IMG/VR virus record: IMGVR_UViG_3300044647_000866
DNA length: 20,000 bases
Source of the DNA: an uncultured virus (IMG/VR IMGVR_UViG_3300044647_000866)
Taxonomy: Duplodnaviria > Heunggongvirae > Uroviricota > Caudoviricetes
Direction: 5' to 3' (one strand)
Below are positions 1 to 7,606 of this stretch, one piece after another (position 1 is the first letter of the stretch; each line of letters opens with the position of its first letter). The notes beneath the pieces were generated by a model that saw only the letters and a program-made list of their open reading frames with translations, was not told the DNA's origin and ran no database searches. The translations under genes were made by a program, and so were the position numbers.

Positions 1-1642
1 AGTGATGAGGGACTTGGCCAGCACGATCCTCGAAGCGCTTGGCGACCACGAGGACGCCGGCACGGGACGAGTCTCTATCATTGCCGCCCAGCAGATTCCC
101 GAACATGTCGCGACCGCCGCCGTACTGGACGTGGTCGTAGGTGCTGGGTGATCGGAAGCCAACCACCTCACACTCAGCGCCAGCCGTCTCTGCGGCCTGA
201 GCGATCGTCCAAGCAAGTTGGGCGGCGTTCTTGGCGTTCTGTCCGGCCATCGAGCCAGACATGTCGACCATGATGGACACCGAAGTCTCGATGCCCTCGC
301 TGACCCAGCGGCGCTTGAAGACCGACTCGCTACCGCTCAGCATGCGCGGCGCACGGCGGCCATCGAACCGGCCACTGACCGACCCGCTGTCCCAGCCGCA
401 ACGCTCAGGAGCCTTGAGGATCTGGTACAGACGCGATTTCAGCGCCGGCAACACCGTCTTCGACAGCGTACGCGCTGCTCGACGCAGTCCGGCATCGTCC
501 TTCTGCATCGATGTCCAGCGGCGCATTTCACTGCGGCCCGGAGGCGGGGCAGACGCCAACGAGATCGGCACCATCGTGCGCTCACGGATACGCTTGAACA
601 CGTCATCGATGTCAGGCTCAGGCGACTTGCACAACTGTTCGTCGTACTGTTCCTGCCTGTCCTCGTACGGCTCATCGCCGCCGTTGTTGGTGACAGCCTC
701 GCCGTCCTCGCCTTCGTCGTCTCCGGACTCGATAGGCATAGGAGCGCTGTCGGCCTCGCCGGCTTCAGTCGTCTCAGACATCTCAGCCTCAGCCTGAGCG
801 AGTTCAGCAGCATCGCTGTCGCCGTCTTCGGAACCGAACGACTCGTCGGAGTCTCCCGACTCAGAGTCGTCGTCTTCCGACTGTTGTGGCTGTTGTGACT
901 GTTGCTGCTCCCACGGCTGCCGGCTGTCGGCACTCTGGTCGACAGGCTCGATGGCCTTCCAGCCTTCGAGGAACTGCATCGCCAGCCCCAGCGCTTGGCC
1001 AGTGCCGTCGCGATCCAGCGACAGGCTTGGCATCGCGTCAGCGACCGCCTTGTACAGGCTGCGCTTCGGCTCCGGGATTCGGTCGAGCAGTTTCTTGGCG
1101 AAACCGTTGCCGTCACCCAGCGCGGCCCGACTGATCAGCGCGAGCGCGAATGGCGCACTGTTGATCGATGTCGGGTTGAACTTGTCATCGAGTTTGGACG
1201 TGAACTGCGACATCAGTCGCTTGAACCCAGACCGCGCACCGTTTGCGCGACCGGACGCAATCACCGCATGCTCGATGCGACCGTCCTCGATTCCGTTCCA
1301 CAGATTCCGCAGCAGAGAATACTCCGGGCCTGAGTACCGGAGTAGGCTGCTTTGGTCGGTGTACGCGACGTGCCCGACCTCGTGGCTGGTGTAGGCCGCG
1401 ATCAGGTCTGCCTCGATGCGCGACACGAACGAGTTGTCGGGCATGCTGGGGTAGTTGATGCGGTAGGTCATCACCCTGCTACGGTCGGAAGTGAGCGCCC
1501 ACTGGGCGAAGGCAATCTCGCCGCCGAAGGTGACAGTGCCGGCCCCTGAGAACACGGCATCGCTGCCCAGCAGCGCTCGCAGTTGCTTCTGCGAGTGGAC
1601 AAGTGCCGCGGCCTTGACGGTCGCCGATTTAATCTTTTGCAT
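1..1642 (-). CDS. CobT-like protein: N-terminal HExxH metallopeptidase-like domain, acidic linker and C-terminal VWA domain (3' end truncated by the window edge)
   Basis: Missing from the ORF track because it has no stop in the window. ATG at 1642 with GAGGAA RBS at 1648-1653. Manual translation gives MQKIKSATVKAAALVHSQKQ...AAYTSHEVGHVAYTD...NLWNGIEDGRIE..., a D/E/S-rich linker, then VSIMVDMSGSMAG (MIDAS DxSxS motif). It directly follows a MoxR-type ATPase, the usual partner. Confidence 0.88.
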   Translation of the reverse strand, partial: MQKIKSATVKAAALVHSQKQLRALLGSDAVFSGAGTVTFGGEIAFAQWALTSDRSRVMTYRINYPSMPDNSFVSRIEADLIAAYTSHEVGHVAYTDQSSLLRYSGPEYSLLRNLWNGIEDGRIEHAVIASGRANGARSGFKRLMSQFTSKLDDKFNPTSINSAPFALALISRAALGDGNGFAKKLLDRIPEPKRSLYKAVADAMPSLSLDRDGTGQALGLAMQFLEGWKAIEPVDQSADSRQPWEQQQSQQPQQSEDDDSESGDSDESFGSEDGDSDAAELAQAEAEMSETTEAGEADSAPMPIESGDDEGEDGEAVTNNGGDEPYEDRQEQYDEQLCKSPEPDIDDVFKRIRERTMVPISLASAPPPGRSEMRRWTSMQKDDAGLRRAARTLSKTVLPALKSRLYQILKAPERCGWDSGSVSGRFDGRRAPRMLSGSESVFKRRWVSEGIETSVSIMVDMSGSMAGQNAKNAAQLAWTIAQAAETAGAECEVVGFRSPSTYDHVQYGGGRDMFGNLLGGNDRDSSRAGVLVVAKRFEDRAGQVPHH

Positions 1643-1651
1643 GACGATTCC

Positions 1652-2869
1652 TCACGCCGCTTCGGGCGCATTTGGGGAGTTGACATCGACCACGTCGGGC
1701 GTGACGACAGGCGGCGCGAGACCAGCCATCGCGGCCTCGATACCAGCGTCCGACATGTTCGCTTTCCATATCTGCTGCAGGACTTCACGCGATTCAGGCG
1801 ATGCTCGATTGACCATCGTCTGCTCGAATGCCAGTCGCGGCGGCACCTTGTCGGCCAGCGCCTCAGCAAGGTAGAACGCCTCGCGCAGCGTCGGGACATG
1901 GTCGAGTTGGCTAGACTGACCAGCCTGCCGCATGACCGACAGCATGCTCACGATCAGCGTCGACAGGTTGCTGTGGACGCCAGTGCGGCTGCTGATGACC
2001 TGCGCTTCGTCCGCCGATTGCAGGTAACTGAACTCGATCGTGCGAGCGAAGCGGTTGACGAACGCGACGTTCATCTCGCGCACCCCGGCGTACATGCCGG
2101 TGTAGTCGCCGCGACCGTTCGAGTTGTCCGCAGCCATGAACACCACGCCCGGAGCCTTGCGAATCACCTCGCCAGTCTCAGGCACCGTGACCACGCCCTC
2201 CGGCTCCAGCGGCGCATGCAGCGCCGACAGGTACTCAGGTCGAGCGAACGACACCTCGTCGAGCAGGATGACTGCACCGGGGCGCACGAAACCGCGCAGG
2301 ATGATGCCGTGCTGGTAGACGGTCGAGCCGTTCTTGACACGCTCGCCGCCGATGAACTCGTAGCGCTCAGCACCGCTGTCGAACGACACGCGGACGAAGG
2401 CGCGACCAAGGCCAGCGCACAGGTTGCGCACGAACTCCGTCTTGCCGGTGCCGGCAGGGCCAGCCAGCCACACGTTGCGGCCACGGGCAACAGCCGTCAC
2501 AGCAGTGAACAGTTGCTCCGCGTTGAACTTGTACAACGGGTCGAGCGCGGGGGCTGCAGGGTCGTTGTAAACATCGACCTCGTACGCACCGTGCTTGCCG
2601 CGGATGCCGAAGACCTCGCGCAGCGACTTGCGAGCGACCACCTCGACGTTGGGCACCTCGACCGCCGCAGAAGGCGTAGGAGCCGCGATCGGTGCGAGGG
2701 AGCCTGAGATCAGGCCCATCGAGGAAATCGCCTCAGCGACCTTCTCCTGCGGCAGAGCGGCCACTTGCTCGATGAAGTCCTGCTTGGACTTGCGAGCGTA
2801 GTCGCCAGCGGAGCCGGACACCCGGCGAACCAACTCGACGAGTTGGGCCTTGGACATTTGGTTGATCAT
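1652..2869 (-). CDS. CobS/MoxR-family AAA+ ATPase
   Basis: Walker A GPAGTGKT, Walker B ILLDE, 'AADNSNGRG...Y.G...MNVAFVNRF' sensor/arginine-finger region typical of CobS-like phage ATPases. Start reassigned to ATG 2869 (MINQMSK), with a GAGG RBS at 2875-2878. Confidence 0.9.
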   Translation of the reverse strand: MINQMSKAQLVELVRRVSGSAGDYARKSKQDFIEQVAALPQEKVAEAISSMGLISGSLAPIAAPTPSAAVEVPNVEVVARKSLREVFGIRGKHGAYEVDVYNDPAAPALDPLYKFNAEQLFTAVTAVARGRNVWLAGPAGTGKTEFVRNLCAGLGRAFVRVSFDSGAERYEFIGGERVKNGSTVYQHGIILRGFVRPGAVILLDEVSFARPEYLSALHAPLEPEGVVTVPETGEVIRKAPGVVFMAADNSNGRGDYTGMYAGVREMNVAFVNRFARTIEFSYLQSADEAQVISSRTGVHSNLSTLIVSMLSVMRQAGQSSQLDHVPTLREAFYLAEALADKVPPRLAFEQTMVNRASPESREVLQQIWKANMSDAGIEAAMAGLAPPVVTPDVVDVNSPNAPEAA

Positions 2870-2898
2870 GGGAGCCTCACAGTTGTTGTTGATTGTCT

Positions 2899-2961
2899 GA
2901 CCATCGTCAGGCAGCGCATCACGCTGCGACAGGGACGCCTCACGGCGAGCCTGTTTCGGTC
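2899..2961 (-). ncRNA. Type II hammerhead ribozyme (HH-B)
   Basis: Minus strand reads GACC-GAAAC-AGG CUC GCC GUGA GGC GUC CCU-GUC^GCAGCG UGAUG CGCUGC-CUGACGA-U-GGUC. It has the CUGANGA and GAAA core, a GUC cleavage triplet (cut between 2928 and 2927) and stems I, II and III, with one extra U after the CUGACGA core. Confidence 0.88.
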
Positions 2962-3140
2962 TATCGGGCCATCTCCTTGATGCCCTTGATCCGGCCATCG
3001 AAGTGGCCGAGTTGGTAGACGTAGGTGATCTGCGATCGAACGCAGGATTCAGACACCACGTAGCCATCTTTCGATGCCTGCTCGATGTACTTGAACAGTC
3101 GCTCGACAATCCGATCGACTTCTTCGTTTTCGTGTTTCAT
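2961..3140 (-). CDS. Hypothetical protein, 59 aa
   Basis: Missing from the ORF track. MKHENEEVDRIVERLFKYIEQASKDGYVVSESCVRSQITYVYQLGHFDGRIKGIKEMAR*. Strong GAGGAGG RBS at about 3148-3154 and an ATGA overlap with the upstream ORF. Confidence 0.8.
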   Translation of the reverse strand: MKHENEEVDRIVERLFKYIEQASKDGYVVSESCVRSQITYVYQLGHFDGRIKGIKEMAR

Positions 3141-3244
3141 TGCGAATCCTCCTCATCCAGCCAACCGAAAGCGATGTATCCGGCCAGTGCGAACACGGCC
3201 AGTGCGAGCGCCATGCGTGGCGCGTAGAACAGGAATGCGTCCAT
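3137..3244 (-). CDS. Small single-pass membrane protein, 35 aa
   Basis: Missing from the ORF track. MDAFLFYAPRMALALAVFALAGYIAFGWLDEEDSQ*. GAGGTG RBS at 3249-3254; the stop overlaps the next start (ATGA). Confidence 0.7.
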   Translation of the reverse strand: MDAFLFYAPRMALALAVFALAGYIAFGWLDEEDSQ

Positions 3245-3252
3245 CGATCACC

Positions 3253-3507
3253 TCACAGGTCGAACAGCGAGACGCTGGTGGAGCGCACTTCCGACACGAC
3301 TTCGGCGAGTTGCTCGTCGGTCAGAATCTTGCGCACCTTGGTCGAATCGATTCGGCTCGAAGCGCGTTCAGAGACGACGGCGCGGAAGACCTCGCCGCGG
3401 TACTCGCCAGCGCCAGAGTCGCGCAGGATTTTCTTGATGGCCTCAGCCTGCTGGTTGAGGGCGGAGATTTGTGCGTTGAGCGCACCCAGTTGGTCGACGA
3501 TCTGCAT
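3253..3507 (-). CDS. Hypothetical phage protein, 84 aa (N-terminal coiled coil)
   Basis: GAGG RBS at 3512-3515, codon usage matching the operon, tight packing with neighbours. Confidence 0.8.
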   Translation of the reverse strand: MQIVDQLGALNAQISALNQQAEAIKKILRDSGAGEYRGEVFRAVVSERASSRIDSTKVRKILTDEQLAEVVSEVRSTSVSLFDL

Positions 3508-3535
3508 ATAGCCTCACAGTTGTGTTGATGTTGTT

Positions 3536-3587
3536 GGTCTCGTCAGTGGCAGCATCACTGCCAGACCGGCTCACGCCGGTTTCGACC
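3536..3587 (-). ncRNA. Type II hammerhead ribozyme (HH-A)
   Basis: Minus strand reads GGUC-GAAAC-CGGC GUGA GCCG-GUC^UGGCAG UGAUG CUGCCA-CUGACGA-GACC. The core is canonical and all three stems are perfect Watson-Crick. Predicted cut between 3564 and 3563. Loop I UGAUG is complementary to the downstream CAUCA (3530-3526). Confidence 0.95.
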
Positions 3588-3589
3588 TG

Positions 3590-3904
3590 TCAGAAGTTGT
3601 AGTCGTAGAACTTGACCGGCTCGTCGGACAGGCCATAGCGCCGCTTCGCGGCATCCTTCCAGCCGTGCTTGCCAAGGCGGATGCGGACAACGCGACCGTC
3701 CGGGTCGCTCTTGATCAGCCACTGCTGGCTGCTCTGGTTGACCACCGTGCCGAAGAAGCCGCCGGGGACAAAGTCAGGCTTCCACGAGGGGTCGCGCTCA
3801 GCCTTCATGGCGCGTATTTCGAGCGTCTTGTCGCTCACGCGCCGCACGATCTCGAAAGGGTTCACGTCGCTGTAGCCGTAGTGGTTGGCGTAGTTCATGT
3901 TCAT
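3590..3904 (-). CDS. Hypothetical phage protein, ~104 aa
   Basis: Protein-like ORF. A GGAG at 3905-3908 directly abuts ATG 3904, so its spacing fits the second ATG (3898) better. First gene after the leftward promoter. Confidence 0.8.
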   Translation of the reverse strand: MNMNYANHYGYSDVNPFEIVRRVSDKTLEIRAMKAERDPSWKPDFVPGGFFGTVVNQSSQQWLIKSDPDGRVVRIRLGKHGWKDAAKRRYGLSDEPVKFYDYNF

Positions 3905-3925
3905 CTCCAGTTGTTGTTAACAGTT

Positions 3926-3970
3926 GTGACTCAGTGCAGCGTCCTAAGCGAGGGCGCTCTACTCAGTCGC
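3926..3970. other. Long imperfect hairpin in the early leader
   Basis: GTGACTCAGTGCAGCGTCCT-aagcg-AGGGCGCTCTACTCAGTCGC: 20-position arms with two C-C mismatches and three G-T pairs as read on the + strand. Confidence 0.7.
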
Positions 3971-3984
3971 GAGATTGATTCTCC

Positions 3985-4156
3985 GGTTCGTTGGGCATCG
4001 TCAGACTTTCGGGCGGCTGCTGTACTTGCAGGTCATTGCCTTCAACCCTACGGCTTCACCGATGCTTTAGGCCGGACTCCGTCTCAGGGAGCCGCCGGGC
4101 TGCTTGCGCTCATCCGGCACCAGAACCTTTGTTTGGGTGGCCCGTCTGGGAGGCCA
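3985..4156 (-). ncRNA. Putative multi-stem structured RNA of unassigned family in the early leader
   Basis: 5' hairpin UGGCCU/GGGCCA, then a domain closed by GGUUC (4127-4123)/GAACC (3989-3985). It contains GCCGG/CCGGC, GGCUCC-CUGAGAC-GGAGUC and GCAUCG/CGAUGC helices. No credible ORF with an RBS. Confidence 0.6.
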
Positions 4157-4165
4157 GTGGTGCGT

Positions 4166-4194
4166 ATCCTGAACAGTTCCACAGTTGTTGTCAA
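4166..4194 (-). promoter_or_regulatory. Sigma70-like early promoter (leftward)
   Basis: Minus strand TTGACA (4194-4189), 17-bp spacer, CAGGAT (4171-4166). Perfect -35, weaker -10. Predicted TSS near 4159. Confidence 0.7.
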
Positions 4195-4254
4195 CACTTG
4201 TTTCTGACAAATGTCGAAATAGGTGATTTCCCCTAGGAAAATAGGAGTTCCGAG

Positions 4255-4449
4255 ATGATGAAGGGCAAAATGCACGGCAAGAAGCACGGTTCGAAGCACG
4301 GGCGCAGCGAGATGCGAGCGCTGAAGCGTGGCGGTGCGAGCAAGGCTGTTGTGGCCGAAGAGGCCGCGGAGTACGGCATGAAGCATGGCGGCATGGTCGG
4401 CAGCGGCTGCGGTGGATACCGCGGCAAGCAGGACTACGGCAAGCGCTGA
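4255..4449 (+). CDS. Small basic (K/G/H-rich) hypothetical protein
   Basis: AGGAG RBS at 4243-4247; first gene of the rightward operon; stop overlaps the next start (TGATG). Confidence 0.75.
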   Translation: MMKGKMHGKKHGSKHGRSEMRALKRGGASKAVVAEEAAEYGMKHGGMVGSGCGGYRGKQDYGKR

Positions 4450-4598
4450 TGCCCGGACTGTACGAGAACATTTGGAAAAAGCGCCGCCGCATCGCCGCAG
4501 GAAGCGGGGAATCGATGCGCAAGCCCGGAACTAAGAGCGCACCCAGCGCTGCAGACTTCCGGAAGGCCTCTAAGACAGCGAAGCGCGGCAAGAAGTGA
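4449..4598 (+). CDS. Small basic hypothetical protein, 49 aa
   Basis: Missing from the ORF track. MPGLYENIWKKRRRIAAGSGESMRKPGTKSAPSAADFRKASKTAKRGKK*. Overlaps both neighbours. Confidence 0.75.
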   Translation: MPGLYENIWKKRRRIAAGSGESMRKPGTKSAPSAADFRKASKTAKRGKK

Positions 4599-5215
4599 GC
4601 GAGGGTGAGGCAGTGAGTCAGACCAAGCGTGAGGAAAAACGCCGCGCCGCAAGGGAGCGGAAGGACGCGATCCAGCAGCAGGAGTTGTCCATCGAGAGGG
4701 AGAGAGAGCAGGCAGCCTTCAAGGCACTGCAGGAGTCCAGACAGAAGGGAATCATGGGGAGACCCAGTTCCTACACAGACGAGAGGGCAGACGAACTCTG
4801 CACATGGATCGCACAGGGGAACAGCCTGCGCAGTTTCTGCAAGATCCACGGGATGGAAGCCCAGACGGTGTACCGGTGGATGCGGGAGCGCCCCGACTTC
4901 CAGCAACGCTACGCCCGCGCACACGAGGATCGTGCCGACAGTCTGGCCGACGAGATGTGCGACATCGCCGACGAGGTGGCCGCCAACGGGGGCAGCATCG
5001 AGGCCGTACAGGCCGCCCGACTGCGGATCGACACCCGCAAGTGGATTGCCGCCAAGTTGCGACCGGGCAGGTGGGGGGAGGTGCAGGCACCCAAGGCGCA
5101 GACCGCCGTCACGTTCAAGATCGGACTGCCCCTCATGGACAGGGGTGGGGGTGGAATCACAATAGACGCTACCCCTGTTGCTGAGGCGCTCCCAGACGGG
5201 GCAGAGGCGGCCTAA
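4595..5215 (+). CDS. terS: Terminase small subunit (Sf6/P22-like)
   Basis: GRPSSYTDERADELCTWIAQGNSLRSFCK HTH, 'TVYRWM...FQQRYARA' and 'ARLRIDTRKWIAAKL.P' match the Sf6-type TerS pattern. The start may be a downstream GTG. Confidence 0.88.
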   Translation: MSEGEAVSQTKREEKRRAARERKDAIQQQELSIEREREQAAFKALQESRQKGIMGRPSSYTDERADELCTWIAQGNSLRSFCKIHGMEAQTVYRWMRERPDFQQRYARAHEDRADSLADEMCDIADEVAANGGSIEAVQAARLRIDTRKWIAAKLRPGRWGEVQAPKAQTAVTFKIGLPLMDRGGGGITIDATPVAEALPDGAEAA

Positions 5216-5569
5216 TAGCGGATCGCGCACTCCTTTAATGGCATGGCAGACCCCCCTCCGGCCTGCCGTCCAGCGGCGGCATCCGGCCCCCGCCAGCGGC
5301 CCATCGAGCGCGACGGGGGGTGGCTTTGGTTCCACCACACATACCTACTCACACGCACTGGTCGACTCCGGTCGTGACCCCCTGCTGGCCACTGAGCTGC
5401 AGGCCGGGGGGCTATGTTGGCCGGCTACAAAATTTTTTTGCGGCTGCCCTTTAGGCGGTCGATGTACCCAATCGGTCACTGGGCACCCTCCTCATCGCCC
5501 AAAGTCAGGTCGCCTCCCCTGACGGTAGTGACGCGGGATGTCGTAACCCGCACTTACTAGGGGGTTCGC

Positions 5570-5872
5570 ATGATTCCGAAAGAGTTCTCGATCATGGGCT
5601 GCACGGTGACTGTCGAGATCCTCAGTGACGAGGAGTGGCAGCACGAGGGGGCGGTCGGGTTGTATGACCCGTCCCGTCACAGCATCAAGCTGTTGAAGTC
5701 AAATCAGCAGATGATGGAACACACGTACTTTCATGAGCTGGTGCATTGCATCCTGCATACGATCGGCAGAACAAAGCTGTCTGATGATGAGGAGCTGGTG
5801 GACATGGTCGCAGGACTGTTACATCAGTCTGTTAAGACAGCTGTGTATCCGAACAACAAAAAGGGCAAATGA
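5570..5872 (+). CDS. Small HExxH zinc-metallopeptidase-like protein
   Basis: 'GLYDPSRHSIKL...HTYFHELVHCIL...EELVD' is a minimal zincin pattern (HExxH plus a downstream E). Confidence 0.75.
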   Translation: MIPKEFSIMGCTVTVEILSDEEWQHEGAVGLYDPSRHSIKLLKSNQQMMEHTYFHELVHCILHTIGRTKLSDDEELVDMVAGLLHQSVKTAVYPNNKKGK

Positions 5873-5875
5873 GGC

Positions 5876-6952
5876 ATGGTTAGAAAATTTAGTGATGAGG
5901 AGCTGTTGGCTTCTCTTGAGCGCAACCGGTATGTGAGATCTGAGACTGCTCTTGAGCTGGGGATCTCTGTCAGGAACCTGATCATGCATATCGGCAGGCT
6001 GAAGGCGGCTGGGGTAAAAATCCCTGACACGTCTTACCCGATCGGGCATCAGACCCGCAGCTTCGAGGACAAGAAGCAGCAGTTCGAGATCAAGGAGCTG
6101 CCGGACGACGACGTCTCCGTCGAGGAGCTGGTTCAGATCCGCAAGCGGCAGTTCGCTGCCAAGAAGAGCCATGAAGAGGCGGCCAAGCTCATCCCGGTCA
6201 AGATCAAGATTGATGGCGCTGTAGGCCTCCTGCACTTCGGTGACCCGCACGTCGACGACGACGGCACGGACATTGCCGCCTTGGAGCGCCACACCAAGCT
6301 GGTGTCGGACACGCCGGGGTTGTTTGCCTGCAACGTGGGCGACACCCTGAACAACTGGACGGGCCGGTTGGCCCGGTTGTACGGCGAGCAGGCTACGTCA
6401 GCGGCGCAGGCATGGCGTCTGGCGGAATGGTTCGTCGGACGCTGCGACTGGCTGTACATGATTGGGGGAAACCACGACCTGTGGTCTGGCGCTGGAGACC
6501 CGCTGAAGTGGATCGCAAAGCAGCAAAACGCCTTGTACAAATCCTCAGAGGCACGCATAGCCTTGAGGTTTCCAAATGGGCAAGAGGTGCGTGTGAACGC
6601 ACGCCACGATCATGTCGGCTCCTCGATATGGAACCCAGCCCACGGGCCGATGAAGGCCGCGATCATGGGCACGCGAGATCACCTGTACGTCGCCGGACAT
6701 AAACACGAGTCGGCGTACTCAGTGCTGAAAGACCCCATCAGCGGGATCACGATGCATGCACTGAAGGTTTCGAGCTACAAGATCTACGACCGTTTCGCAA
6801 AGGAGCGCGGGTTCAGGGACAATACGCTCAGTCCTTGTGCGCTGACTGTGATTAACCCATCCCTTCCGAATTCGCACCCAGACCTGATCAAGGTCTTCTG
6901 GGAACCGGAGGAAGGCGTCAACTATCTTAACTTCTTGCGGAAGAAGAAATAA
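5876..6952 (+). CDS. Calcineurin-like metallophosphoesterase with an N-terminal HTH
   Basis: Motifs GDPH, GD, GNHD, H and GHKH. The N-terminal 'VRSETALELGISVRNL' is HTH-like. GAGG RBS. Confidence 0.85.
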   Translation: MVRKFSDEELLASLERNRYVRSETALELGISVRNLIMHIGRLKAAGVKIPDTSYPIGHQTRSFEDKKQQFEIKELPDDDVSVEELVQIRKRQFAAKKSHEEAAKLIPVKIKIDGAVGLLHFGDPHVDDDGTDIAALERHTKLVSDTPGLFACNVGDTLNNWTGRLARLYGEQATSAAQAWRLAEWFVGRCDWLYMIGGNHDLWSGAGDPLKWIAKQQNALYKSSEARIALRFPNGQEVRVNARHDHVGSSIWNPAHGPMKAAIMGTRDHLYVAGHKHESAYSVLKDPISGITMHALKVSSYKIYDRFAKERGFRDNTLSPCALTVINPSLPNSHPDLIKVFWEPEEGVNYLNFLRKKK

Positions 6953-7185
6953 TGGAACTTCAAGCTGTCTTTAACGTAGTCCTTGGCCTGTCAGCAACAG
7001 GCTTGGGATGGTTCGCTAGAGAACTCTGGTCTGCGGTAAGTGGTCTTAAATCGGACATCGCGAAACTGAGGGAAGACATCCCAAGATATTACGTCTCGAA
7101 AGATGACTACCGCGAAGACATCCGTGAATTGAAAGGCATGTTAGAAAAGATCTTCGACCGGCTAGAGAACAAGGCAGACAAGTGA
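6952..7185 (+). CDS. Small membrane-anchored coiled-coil protein (lysis-region)
   Basis: N-terminal hydrophobic helix followed by a charged coiled coil; TAATG coupling with the upstream gene. Confidence 0.75.
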   Translation: MELQAVFNVVLGLSATGLGWFARELWSAVSGLKSDIAKLREDIPRYYVSKDDYREDIRELKGMLEKIFDRLENKADK

Positions 7186-7192
7186 GGCAATC

Positions 7193-7606
7193 ATGAGCGA
7201 GGCAAGCGAAATTGAAATGTTCAAGGCAAAGGTTCAGGCAGAACTGAATCGCCTTGAAGCTGGCTCTTCTGCAAAAGATGTGGCAGGCAAGGCTATTGGA
7301 AAGGATGGCCTGAAATACATAACGGTCATTGTTGTGATCGGAGTTGTATCTAGCCTTGCATTGGACTCCGACAAGATCGCCGCCGTAATGGGACTTCTTG
7401 GCGCTTCCCTTACCGCATTGATTTCAATGCTGAATGGGATTGCAGGCGCGAATGAAAAAGAAGAGAAGCCTGAGTTTGGCGTTATCAAAGAGCTGATATC
7501 GAAGCTTGATAAGCTGGATCGCAAAGAGATGCCAATGCGTGTTGACGTGGAAGGCGATCATGTGACCGTCACCAAAGGCGAAGATGTAGTGAGGGCAAGC
7601 AAATGA
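7193..7606 (+). CDS. Membrane protein with two predicted TM helices
   Basis: Hydrophobic segments YITVIVVIGVVSSLAL and IAAVMGLLGASLTALISML; GAGG RBS. Confidence 0.7.
   Translation: MSEASEIEMFKAKVQAELNRLEAGSSAKDVAGKAIGKDGLKYITVIVVIGVVSSLALDSDKIAAVMGLLGASLTALISMLNGIAGANEKEEKPEFGVIKELISKLDKLDRKEMPMRVDVEGDHVTVTKGEDVVRASK

Follow-up and report, generated by a model that had tools for sequence, protein, structure and literature searches.

In lambdoid phages, the RNA elements nut and put sit behind the early promoters, and both were discovered in phage early leaders. A nut site of the lambda type consists of boxA and boxB, with the N protein as partner, and its boxB is a 15-nt hairpin. The put element of HK022 is a cis-acting, processive antiterminator RNA of about 70 nt that folds into two stem-loops and is present in two copies, putL and putR. 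The early leader of T7 holds the RNase III site R0.3, and we know of no conserved pseudoknotted domain in it. The pRNA of phi29 belongs to a phage without a small terminase. Very few RNA-only regulators of transcription are known to us, while many unassigned phage RNA motifs already exist. A survey of IMG/VR predicted 10,006 structured RNA motifs (Fremin, Bhatt, Kyrpides 2023, PMC10690425). Clusters of hammerheads have been described that flank genes in prophages and carry a pseudoknot between loop I and the 3´ tail (Perreault et al. 2011, PMC3088659).

The element analysed here comes from an uncultured-virus record of 55.6 kb. It lies inside a 350-nt gap (3905–4254) of the window, the whole stretch of 20,000 nt that was analysed, and is very probably a real structured RNA of a new family, predicted to make up the initial ~230 nt of an early transcript of the phage. 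A sequence-only reading had proposed a multi-helix RNA of ~170 nt (3985–4156) at the start of this transcript. Such an RNA is real and is conserved in relatives, with the sequence and the hairpins as they had been placed, but the fold drawn for it is partly wrong and the element continues in the 3´ direction to 3928. Its features and those of its surroundings are the following.

4166–4194, minus strand: sigma-70-like promoter, with -35 TTGACA (4194–4189), a 17-nt spacer and -10 CAGGAT (4171–4166)
4156–3928, minus strand: structured leader RNA, downstream of the TTGACA-17-CAGGAT promoter-like site
4138–4156, minus strand: P1 hairpin, with UGGCC (4156–4152), loop UCCCAGACG (4151–4143) and GGCCA (4142–4138)
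4120–4124, minus strand: UCUGG within the invariant AGGUUCUGGUGCC, proposed partner of CCAGA (4149–4145) in the P1 loop
4094–4118, minus strand: P3 hairpin, GCCGG (4118–4114) with CCGGC (4098–4094), tip GC-GCAA-GC (4109–4102)
4075–4093, minus strand: P4 hairpin, with GGCUCC (4093–4088), a variable loop (4087–4081) and GGAGUC (4080–4075)
4072–4075, minus strand: 5´ strand of Px, CCGG, directly 3´ of P4, with its partner at 3986–3983, as found by RNAalifold
4066–4071, minus strand: CCUAAA, 5´ side of the internal loop between Px and P5, near-invariant in the alignment A2
3995–4065, minus strand: P5 domain, GCAUCG (4065–4060) with CGAUGC (4000–3995), and an inner hairpin CUGC-AAGUACA-GCAG (4031–4017)
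3983–3994, minus strand: CCAA, three variable nucleotides and A (3994–3987), then the 3´ strand of Px, CCGG (3986–3983)
3928–3968, minus strand: P6, a long irregular hairpin, GACUGAGU-AG-AGCGCCCU-CGCUU-AGGACGCU-GC-ACUGAGUC
3902–3927, minus strand: CA-rich spacer, GGAG (3908–3905) and the ATG of the first gene, which encodes 104 aa (3904–3590)

The fold thus runs in the order P1, the adjacent P3 and P4, Px bearing the optional P5 arm, and then P6. The transcript is predicted from the position of the promoter to start near 4160–4157, and P1 begins about 10 nt past the promoter-like site on the minus strand of the window. A promoter-like pattern, T[TA]G[AC][CA]N, 16–18 nt and NAnnnT, stands at the same place in 40 of the 54 family sequences; a scan with a stricter consensus did not call this promoter in the window. 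No terminator-like site was found by scanning 3400–4800. The operon on the minus side comprises the 104-aa gene, an 84-aa gene, an AAA_5 ATPase and a VWA/CobT-like protein. On the plus side, genes for two small basic proteins and for the small terminase open a block that goes on to the large terminase, portal and capsid genes.

The element always points away from the small terminase gene, which is of two different types, the commoner of them lying upstream in 30 of the 43 loci with enough upstream DNA. The small proteins encoded in the window at 4255–4449 and 4449–4598 (both plus strand) are very basic and rich in K, G and R. No family match was found for such small basic proteins (49–80 aa) beside the terminase genes of either module type. 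The closest cultured relatives of the capsid are from Rhizobium phages, with 51% identity. Outside the window, a 2477-aa protein (61–7494 of the genome, plus strand) matches only PHROGs of unknown function, whose profiles span 2800–3900 aa, and may be a giant virion protein or an injected protein.

The family was collected starting from a protein search with the 104-aa gene, which gave 64 viral loci, some of them with the upstream stretch in common. Members were gathered by scanning viral and metagenome contigs for patterns of conserved words and, after the removal of chance matches by eye and by script, at least 54 distinct sequences were obtained. Alignment A2 holds 51 of these: 49 of at least 170 nt, together with L479 and L469. 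The DNA runs that contain the stretch are lake-water metagenomes. A search of reference genomes from 185,579 species returned 89 pattern matches and no real copy among them, and in 50,697 deposited phage records only the coding part was matched, with no match for the leader stretch.

Further scans, each starting from a different part of the element, brought up the same contigs again, along with chance matches (40 of 47 and 52 of 62 were real). An nhmmer search for intermediate relatives found none among the loci related by the 104-aa protein (L013–L065), other than L018–L021, which bear the element outright. These two results indicate that the family is narrow and that the core words are truly invariant. 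In the nhmmer scan of the family, strong matches all had E ≤ 8e-32 and the next best had 0.029. In the 55.6-kb genome the same program found a single copy of the element, the next match having E = 0.41. As far as the searched sequences go, the family is confined to one group of lake phages, with no cultured phage or reference bacterial genome among the carriers. Relatives of the 104-aa gene that do not have the element carry a promoter and a short plain hairpin at that place. The family itself is a mosaic of alleles that differ module by module, and it is this mosaic that makes the pairing testable.

The 172-nt stretch taken alone gives no fold signal. Its minimum free energy is -57.4 kcal/mol, against -57.14 ± 4.55 kcal/mol in shuffled sequences (z = -0.06); the energy was at least as good in 84 of 200 shuffles, and the opposite strand was no better. 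The signal comes from the comparison of relatives. With the revised model, 97.0% of 2133 cells in A2 can pair, against 26.9–42.6% when the 3´ partners are slid by one to three columns. Sixteen pairs are changed on both sides, a number reached by none of 500 shuffles, with the caveat that related sequences can exceed shuffles without any structure. The compensatory changes trace to a handful of alleles, and independent events are few. G-U cells outnumber A-C cells by 174 to 19, at 14 and 3 pair positions, respectively. This excess indicates that the fold belongs to the minus-strand RNA and that selection acts on RNA rather than on a DNA palindrome.

The stem of P1 occurs in four covarying versions (UGGCC/GGCCA, CGGCC/GGCCG, GCGC/GCGC and GCGGC/GCCGC), at least four of the five pairs being kept in 51 of 51 sequences, which bears out the 5´ hairpin UGGCCU-CCCAGAC-GGGCCA of the sequence-only reading. 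The loop is fixed as N-YCCAGAC-R and its core, CCAGAC, is invariant. RNAalifold paired the CCAGA and UCUGG columns without manual guidance, and the two segments can pair in all 51 sequences; neither side ever varies, so covariation offers no test of this helix. The P1 loop is proposed to pair with the invariant UCUGG as a pseudoknot, which would gather P1, P3, P4 and Px at one junction. Two small hairpins are optional. P0, capped by a GNRA loop, lies 5´ of P1 in 25 of 51 sequences and is absent from the window; P1a, a 3-bp mini-hairpin 3´ of P1 with five stem versions, occurs in 41 of 51, and the window is again without it. Another candidate partner of the P1 loop, the cleavage site of a hammerhead further down the operon (GUCUGG in the window), was discarded, given that stem I differs in other hammerheads.

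P3 is paired in 100% of cells (51 of 51 sequences) and hardly varies, G-C changing to G-U in four; the earlier GCCGG..CCGGC helix is consistent with these data, which are little informative about it. The tip loop of P3 is GCAA, GAAA or GACA among the alleles. In P4, 98.8% of cells are paired and two pairs are changed on both sides. Its alleles GGCUCC/GGAGUC and GGUUCC/GGAACC compensate each other (U-A in 26, C-G in 22), which upholds the helix that had been drawn there. The loop of this hairpin had been called T-loop-like, a description that does not survive, as the loop is not conserved (CUGAGAC, CGGAGG, ACAAG, CGAAAG, UCAAG or GAA). C4075 is more likely part of the next helix, Px, than of P4.

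Px is paired in 99.0% of cells. Columns 131 and 223 hold C-G in 44 sequences, U-A in three and A-U in two, and columns 133 and 221 hold G-C in 48 and A-U in three. Px was accepted because it explains the only changes in the ACCGG segment. The competing helix UUCUGGU/ACCGGRR is 97.5% paired, but the changes at position 223 are mismatched there and compensated in Px; it may be an alternative fold. The CCUAAA that follows the 5´ strand of Px has one variant, CAUAAA, in L479 and L469. A GCC/GGC helix around UAGGGUUGAA was also considered and rejected, since it is broken by the hybrid alleles GAC/GGC, ACC/GAC and GCC/GAC.

The closing helix of P5 is 100% paired and has two pairs changed on both sides. 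Its alleles, GCAUCG/CGAUGC and GCAGCG/CGCUGC, are compensatory (U-A in 22, G-C in 16), as expected from the GCAUCG/CGAUGC pairing of the earlier drawing. P5 exists as long form A in 21 sequences, long form B in 16, a 16-nt hairpin in 13, and one deletion form. The inner hairpins were parsed by hand, as MAFFT misaligns that segment. They are CUGC/GCAG in 21 sequences and CGAC/GUCG in 16, with three of the four pairs different, so the proposed UGC-AAGUACA-GCA hairpin holds as well. The GGUU..GACC element inside P5 never varies; it agrees with the alignment, which carries no information on its pairing. The variation of P5, down to a short hairpin, marks it as a peripheral, optional arm. In one relative (L324, 92–331), 17 nt of P5 are missing, including the inner hairpin, and the remainder can form GGC-ACA-GCC; this could be a minimal form that exists in nature or an artefact of assembly.

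The covariation check on 51 homologs therefore kept most of the proposed helices and removed two elements of the drawing. The domain-closing helix GGUUC/GAACC is 85.9% paired, with two of its five positions unpaired in 18 of 51 sequences. The pseudoknot between CGGC (4074–4071) and GCCG (4054–4051) loses its GCCG side, which becomes GUC, GUCG, GACG, UCCG or ACC without compensation.

P6, at the border between the leader and the first message, has 16 pairs, eight on either side of a 2 x 2 loop, with 94.4% of cells paired and both partners altered in 10 pairs; 31 of 50 sequences retain a G-G mismatch. No U tract follows it on the 3´ side, and its lower stem is almost a DNA palindrome. Its geometry fits that of RNase III hairpins of the T7 R-site type, namely an irregular helix of about two turns, interrupted by an internal loop, at the border of leader and message, and P6 is a candidate processing site. 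In the 43 of 54 sequences with a readable first ORF, the ribosome-binding site follows P6 by 6–40 nt, and the first ORFs have 24 different six-residue N-termini, of about 19 unrelated types. A further word is listed here for its repeated occurrence.

3905–3927, 3510–3545, about 2870–2895 and 4172–4194, minus strand: the word CAACAACUG(U)G

Besides standing ahead of the ribosome-binding site downstream of P6 and of the two hammerhead-like elements, this word runs into the -35 region of the promoter. It resembles a context shared by translation starts, or a joint between cassettes, more than an operator.

Known RNA families do not account for the element. With 4227 models of Rfam 15, no match reached the gathering score anywhere in the window, in line with the earlier statement that no known family was recognised. 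A scan with all of Rfam at E ≤ 10 left the element without a match, in the window as well as in 16 loci of the family; the two matches in the window at that threshold lie on the opposite strand and are chance snoRNA matches. The core words, to our eyes, resemble those of the c-di-GMP-II riboswitch. This likeness was not sustained beyond the level of words, the model (RF01786) giving no match at E ≤ 10 in the genome among six candidates scored. A cobalamin switch, suggested by the CobS/CobT-like genes, was set aside as well: the AAA and VWA pair stands behind the leader in no more than 10 of 52 loci, and none of the cobalamin models gave a match. The phi29 pRNA model (RF00044) gave no match either, and both terminase genes, small and large, are present in this phage.

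The operon behind the leader contains RNA elements of a known kind.

3529–3587, minus strand: type II hammerhead-like element (RF02276, 26.7 bits, E = 0.023; gathering score 37)
2961–2891, minus strand: second, weaker Hammerhead_II match (20.6 bits)

The element at 3587–3529 begins directly after the stop codon of the first gene, within the operon and outside the leader. It has CUGACGA, CGAAAC, a GUC triplet and three stems, and its loop I (UGAUG) pairs with the 3´ tail (CAUCA). Judged by eye, it has the features of type II hammerheads, with a CUGANGA and GAAA core, an NUH site, an open stem II and a pseudoknot. Among relatives, Hammerhead_II matches of 27.1–30.9 bits were found, five in 16 short loci and five in eight longer loci, all hammerhead matches being below the gathering score of 37. 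Besides the window, the loci with such elements are L233, L195, L324, L189, L190, L450 (two), L487, L465 and L474. All lie between genes on the same strand, with a stop codon directly in front of them, and are followed by a CA-rich spacer and a ribosome-binding site. The same cassette of spacer, ribosome-binding site and gene stands after P6 in L193 and after a hammerhead in L189, which indicates that P6 occupies the place that a cleavage site has elsewhere in these operons.

Further downstream, an ORF of ~372 aa is present in 15 of the 16 loci examined, and in the remaining one its place is taken by an ArdC-like protein. In the single locus where this ORF was scanned, its product is an AAA_5 ATPase and a DUF7192 protein comes next. 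The ORF of the AAA ATPase of the window (1652–3109, minus strand) is listed with 485 aa. The stretch upstream of ~2870 is of low complexity and holds the second hammerhead-like match, and the protein probably starts later, near 2870 (MINQMSKAQL). In L446, the operon behind the leader encodes an ArdC-like anti-restriction protein with a zincin peptidase domain (5321–6202, minus strand), which fits an early anti-defence gene set. In 7 of 20 loci, a strong terminator-like hairpin stands ~2.8–4.0 kb from the start of the operon and is followed by further ORFs on the same strand. This hairpin, GGCGGC..GCCGCC with a C run and UUUU, follows the DUF7192 gene (L453, L459, L465, L473, L447, L496 and L486) and could be an internal terminator or attenuator. 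The operon of the window has an end terminator and no internal intrinsic terminator.

Parts of a 901-nt stretch around the element are contained in six metatranscriptome runs. Four of them were mapped and gave five contigs of 151–172 nt at a depth of 2–3.9. On the leader and promoter there are two 151-nt contigs of depth 2 (3989–4139 and 4152–4300), both from run X15 only. The contig at 4152–4300 spans the predicted start site, and DNA carry-over is possible; as it crosses that site, the library contigs do not show this transcript, its ends or its processing. No abundant short RNA species was found in the four mapped libraries.

The favoured reading of the function, to which a probability of roughly 0.3 is given, is that the leader works in cis, as HK022 put does, and thereby protects the early transcription unit. 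Host RNA polymerase would make the leader as the first ~230 nt of the early transcript, the folded core would bind the elongating polymerase in cis or block Rho, the whole early operon would then be transcribed, and a later cut at P6 would part the leader from the first message. The cis role is favoured because the position behind an early promoter is the place of nut and put, because one and the same core precedes genes that change, and because ORFs lie beyond the terminator-like hairpin in 7 of 20 loci. It is opposed by the operon of the window, which has no internal terminator, by the single copy per genome and by a size far larger than that of put. An invariant core in front of changing genes would also suit a stand-alone early RNA that is cut off at P6, for example by RNase III, and acts in trans on a host protein as the earliest phage product in the cell. 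This is possible, if doubtful; the target could be a defence factor, a nuclease or the polymerase, blocked or hijacked by the RNA. The nature of P6 argues for it, as a covarying two-part hairpin with no U tract between the conserved core and the ribosome-binding site, and so do the use of the same cassettes after P6 or a hammerhead with a similar CA-rich spacer (L193 and L189) and the ArdC-like gene in at least one operon. However, both the cleavage at P6 and the partner are putative, the mapped libraries hold no abundant short RNA, and few trans-acting phage RNAs of such a size are known to us. A more modest role, in which the 5´ helices guard the triphosphate end and P6 sets the 5´ end of the first cassette, would agree with a first helix placed within a few nucleotides of the predicted start site, with the plain 5´ hairpin of relatives that lack the element and with hammerheads supplying the ends of the later cassettes. 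A leader that served only for stabilisation and processing, and bound neither polymerase nor ligand, is nevertheless unlikely, as it would have no need for ~60 invariant nucleotides, an invariant loop and a junction that is kept while the stems drift.

The proposed pseudoknot, the packed junction, the conserved unpaired purines and the dispensable arm together recall the design of an aptamer, and the pairing of ACCGGRR with either CCGG (Px) or UUCUGGU (97.5% of cells) offers exclusive folds on paper. A riboswitch-like sensor, in which the pseudoknotted junction would bind a small molecule or an ion and tune the early genes, is still rather unlikely: no expression platform is seen, with P6 lacking a U tract and the ribosome-binding site lying unpaired 6–40 nt beyond it, the downstream genes are varied and not metabolic, no model matches, and it is Px, not the alternative helix, that compensates for the changes at position 223. 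The sequence-only reading had listed a further ribozyme as a candidate, next to a cis antiterminator and a protein-binding or anti-defence RNA. The ribozyme suggestion agrees with the hammerhead-like elements downstream, since the operon already has hammerheads between genes and the leader stands at the sole cassette border without one; an invariant, putatively pseudoknotted core would also suit a new self-cleaving or catalytic RNA that trims itself off the first cassette. But no known ribozyme model matches, the leader has no hammerhead core, and CUGACGA, present in the A allele of P5, is found in neither the B allele nor the short one, which makes catalysis improbable. Least of all is a DNA-level element to be expected (a cos or pac site, an origin or an operator between packaging and early genes). 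In its favour are the constant position beside the small terminase gene and a lower P6 stem that is nearly a DNA palindrome; against this very remote reading, the G-U over A-C ratio of 174 to 19 and the compensation in seven helices point to RNA pairing on one strand.

The leader may tentatively be regarded as a new class of functional RNA and the first product of the phage once its DNA has entered, be it a large put-like RNA that travels with the host polymerase, a decoy for a host defence or nuclease, or a self-processing ribozyme that would complete an operon punctuated by ribozymes; in any of these three cases, its putatively pseudoknotted core of ~120 nt would be an undescribed fold. As a compact, strongly conserved and putatively pseudoknotted RNA at a fixed place ahead of changing genes, it is a clean object for probing. 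Its scope is limited by a narrow family from one lake-phage group with no cultured host. By the design of the operon, every gene cassette has an RNA element at its border, at first the leader hairpin and then hammerheads, and this bears on the processing and protection of early messages in uncultured phages.

Of the described systems, the motifs predicted from IMG/VR share with the leader the source of the data and the type of object, a covarying motif upstream of phage genes (Fremin et al. 2023, PMC10690425). Four core words are absent from those supplementary tables of that work in which they were looked for, and six contig numbers are absent from file 4; the motif may already be listed in its alignment archives. 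The type II hammerhead-like elements between the operon genes, with their pseudoknot between loop I and tail, resemble the prophage clusters of Perreault et al. (PMC3088659), whereas the leader itself is not a hammerhead and the operon matches are below the gathering score. Like the R0.3 leader of T7, the leader of the lake phages is untranslated, lies at the start of the early region behind a predicted host-type promoter and places a long irregular hairpin before the first gene, but its cutting by RNase III at P6 is putative.

With lambda nut the leader shares a place behind an early promoter and GNRA-type loops, on P0, P1a and the tip of P3. It differs in that 10 of 51 sequences, the window among them, have no small hairpin P1a, that the conserved part is a large fold, and that the first gene of the operons is not conserved, which leaves no constant N-like partner. 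The comparison with HK022 put was made by sequence rather than by fold, the put sites being unannotated in the HK022 record, and gave no similarity: in the stretch at 24,000–32,000, which we take to hold the early region, the best nhmmer match had 7.2 bits and lay inside a replication gene. The leader is also longer, at ~120–230 nt, has a putative pseudoknotted junction and is present once per genome instead of twice. Both are nonetheless structured RNAs in the 5´ part of an early transcript, just downstream of the (here predicted) early promoter and, as with put, a fixed phage protein partner would be unneeded for the leader, since the first genes vary.
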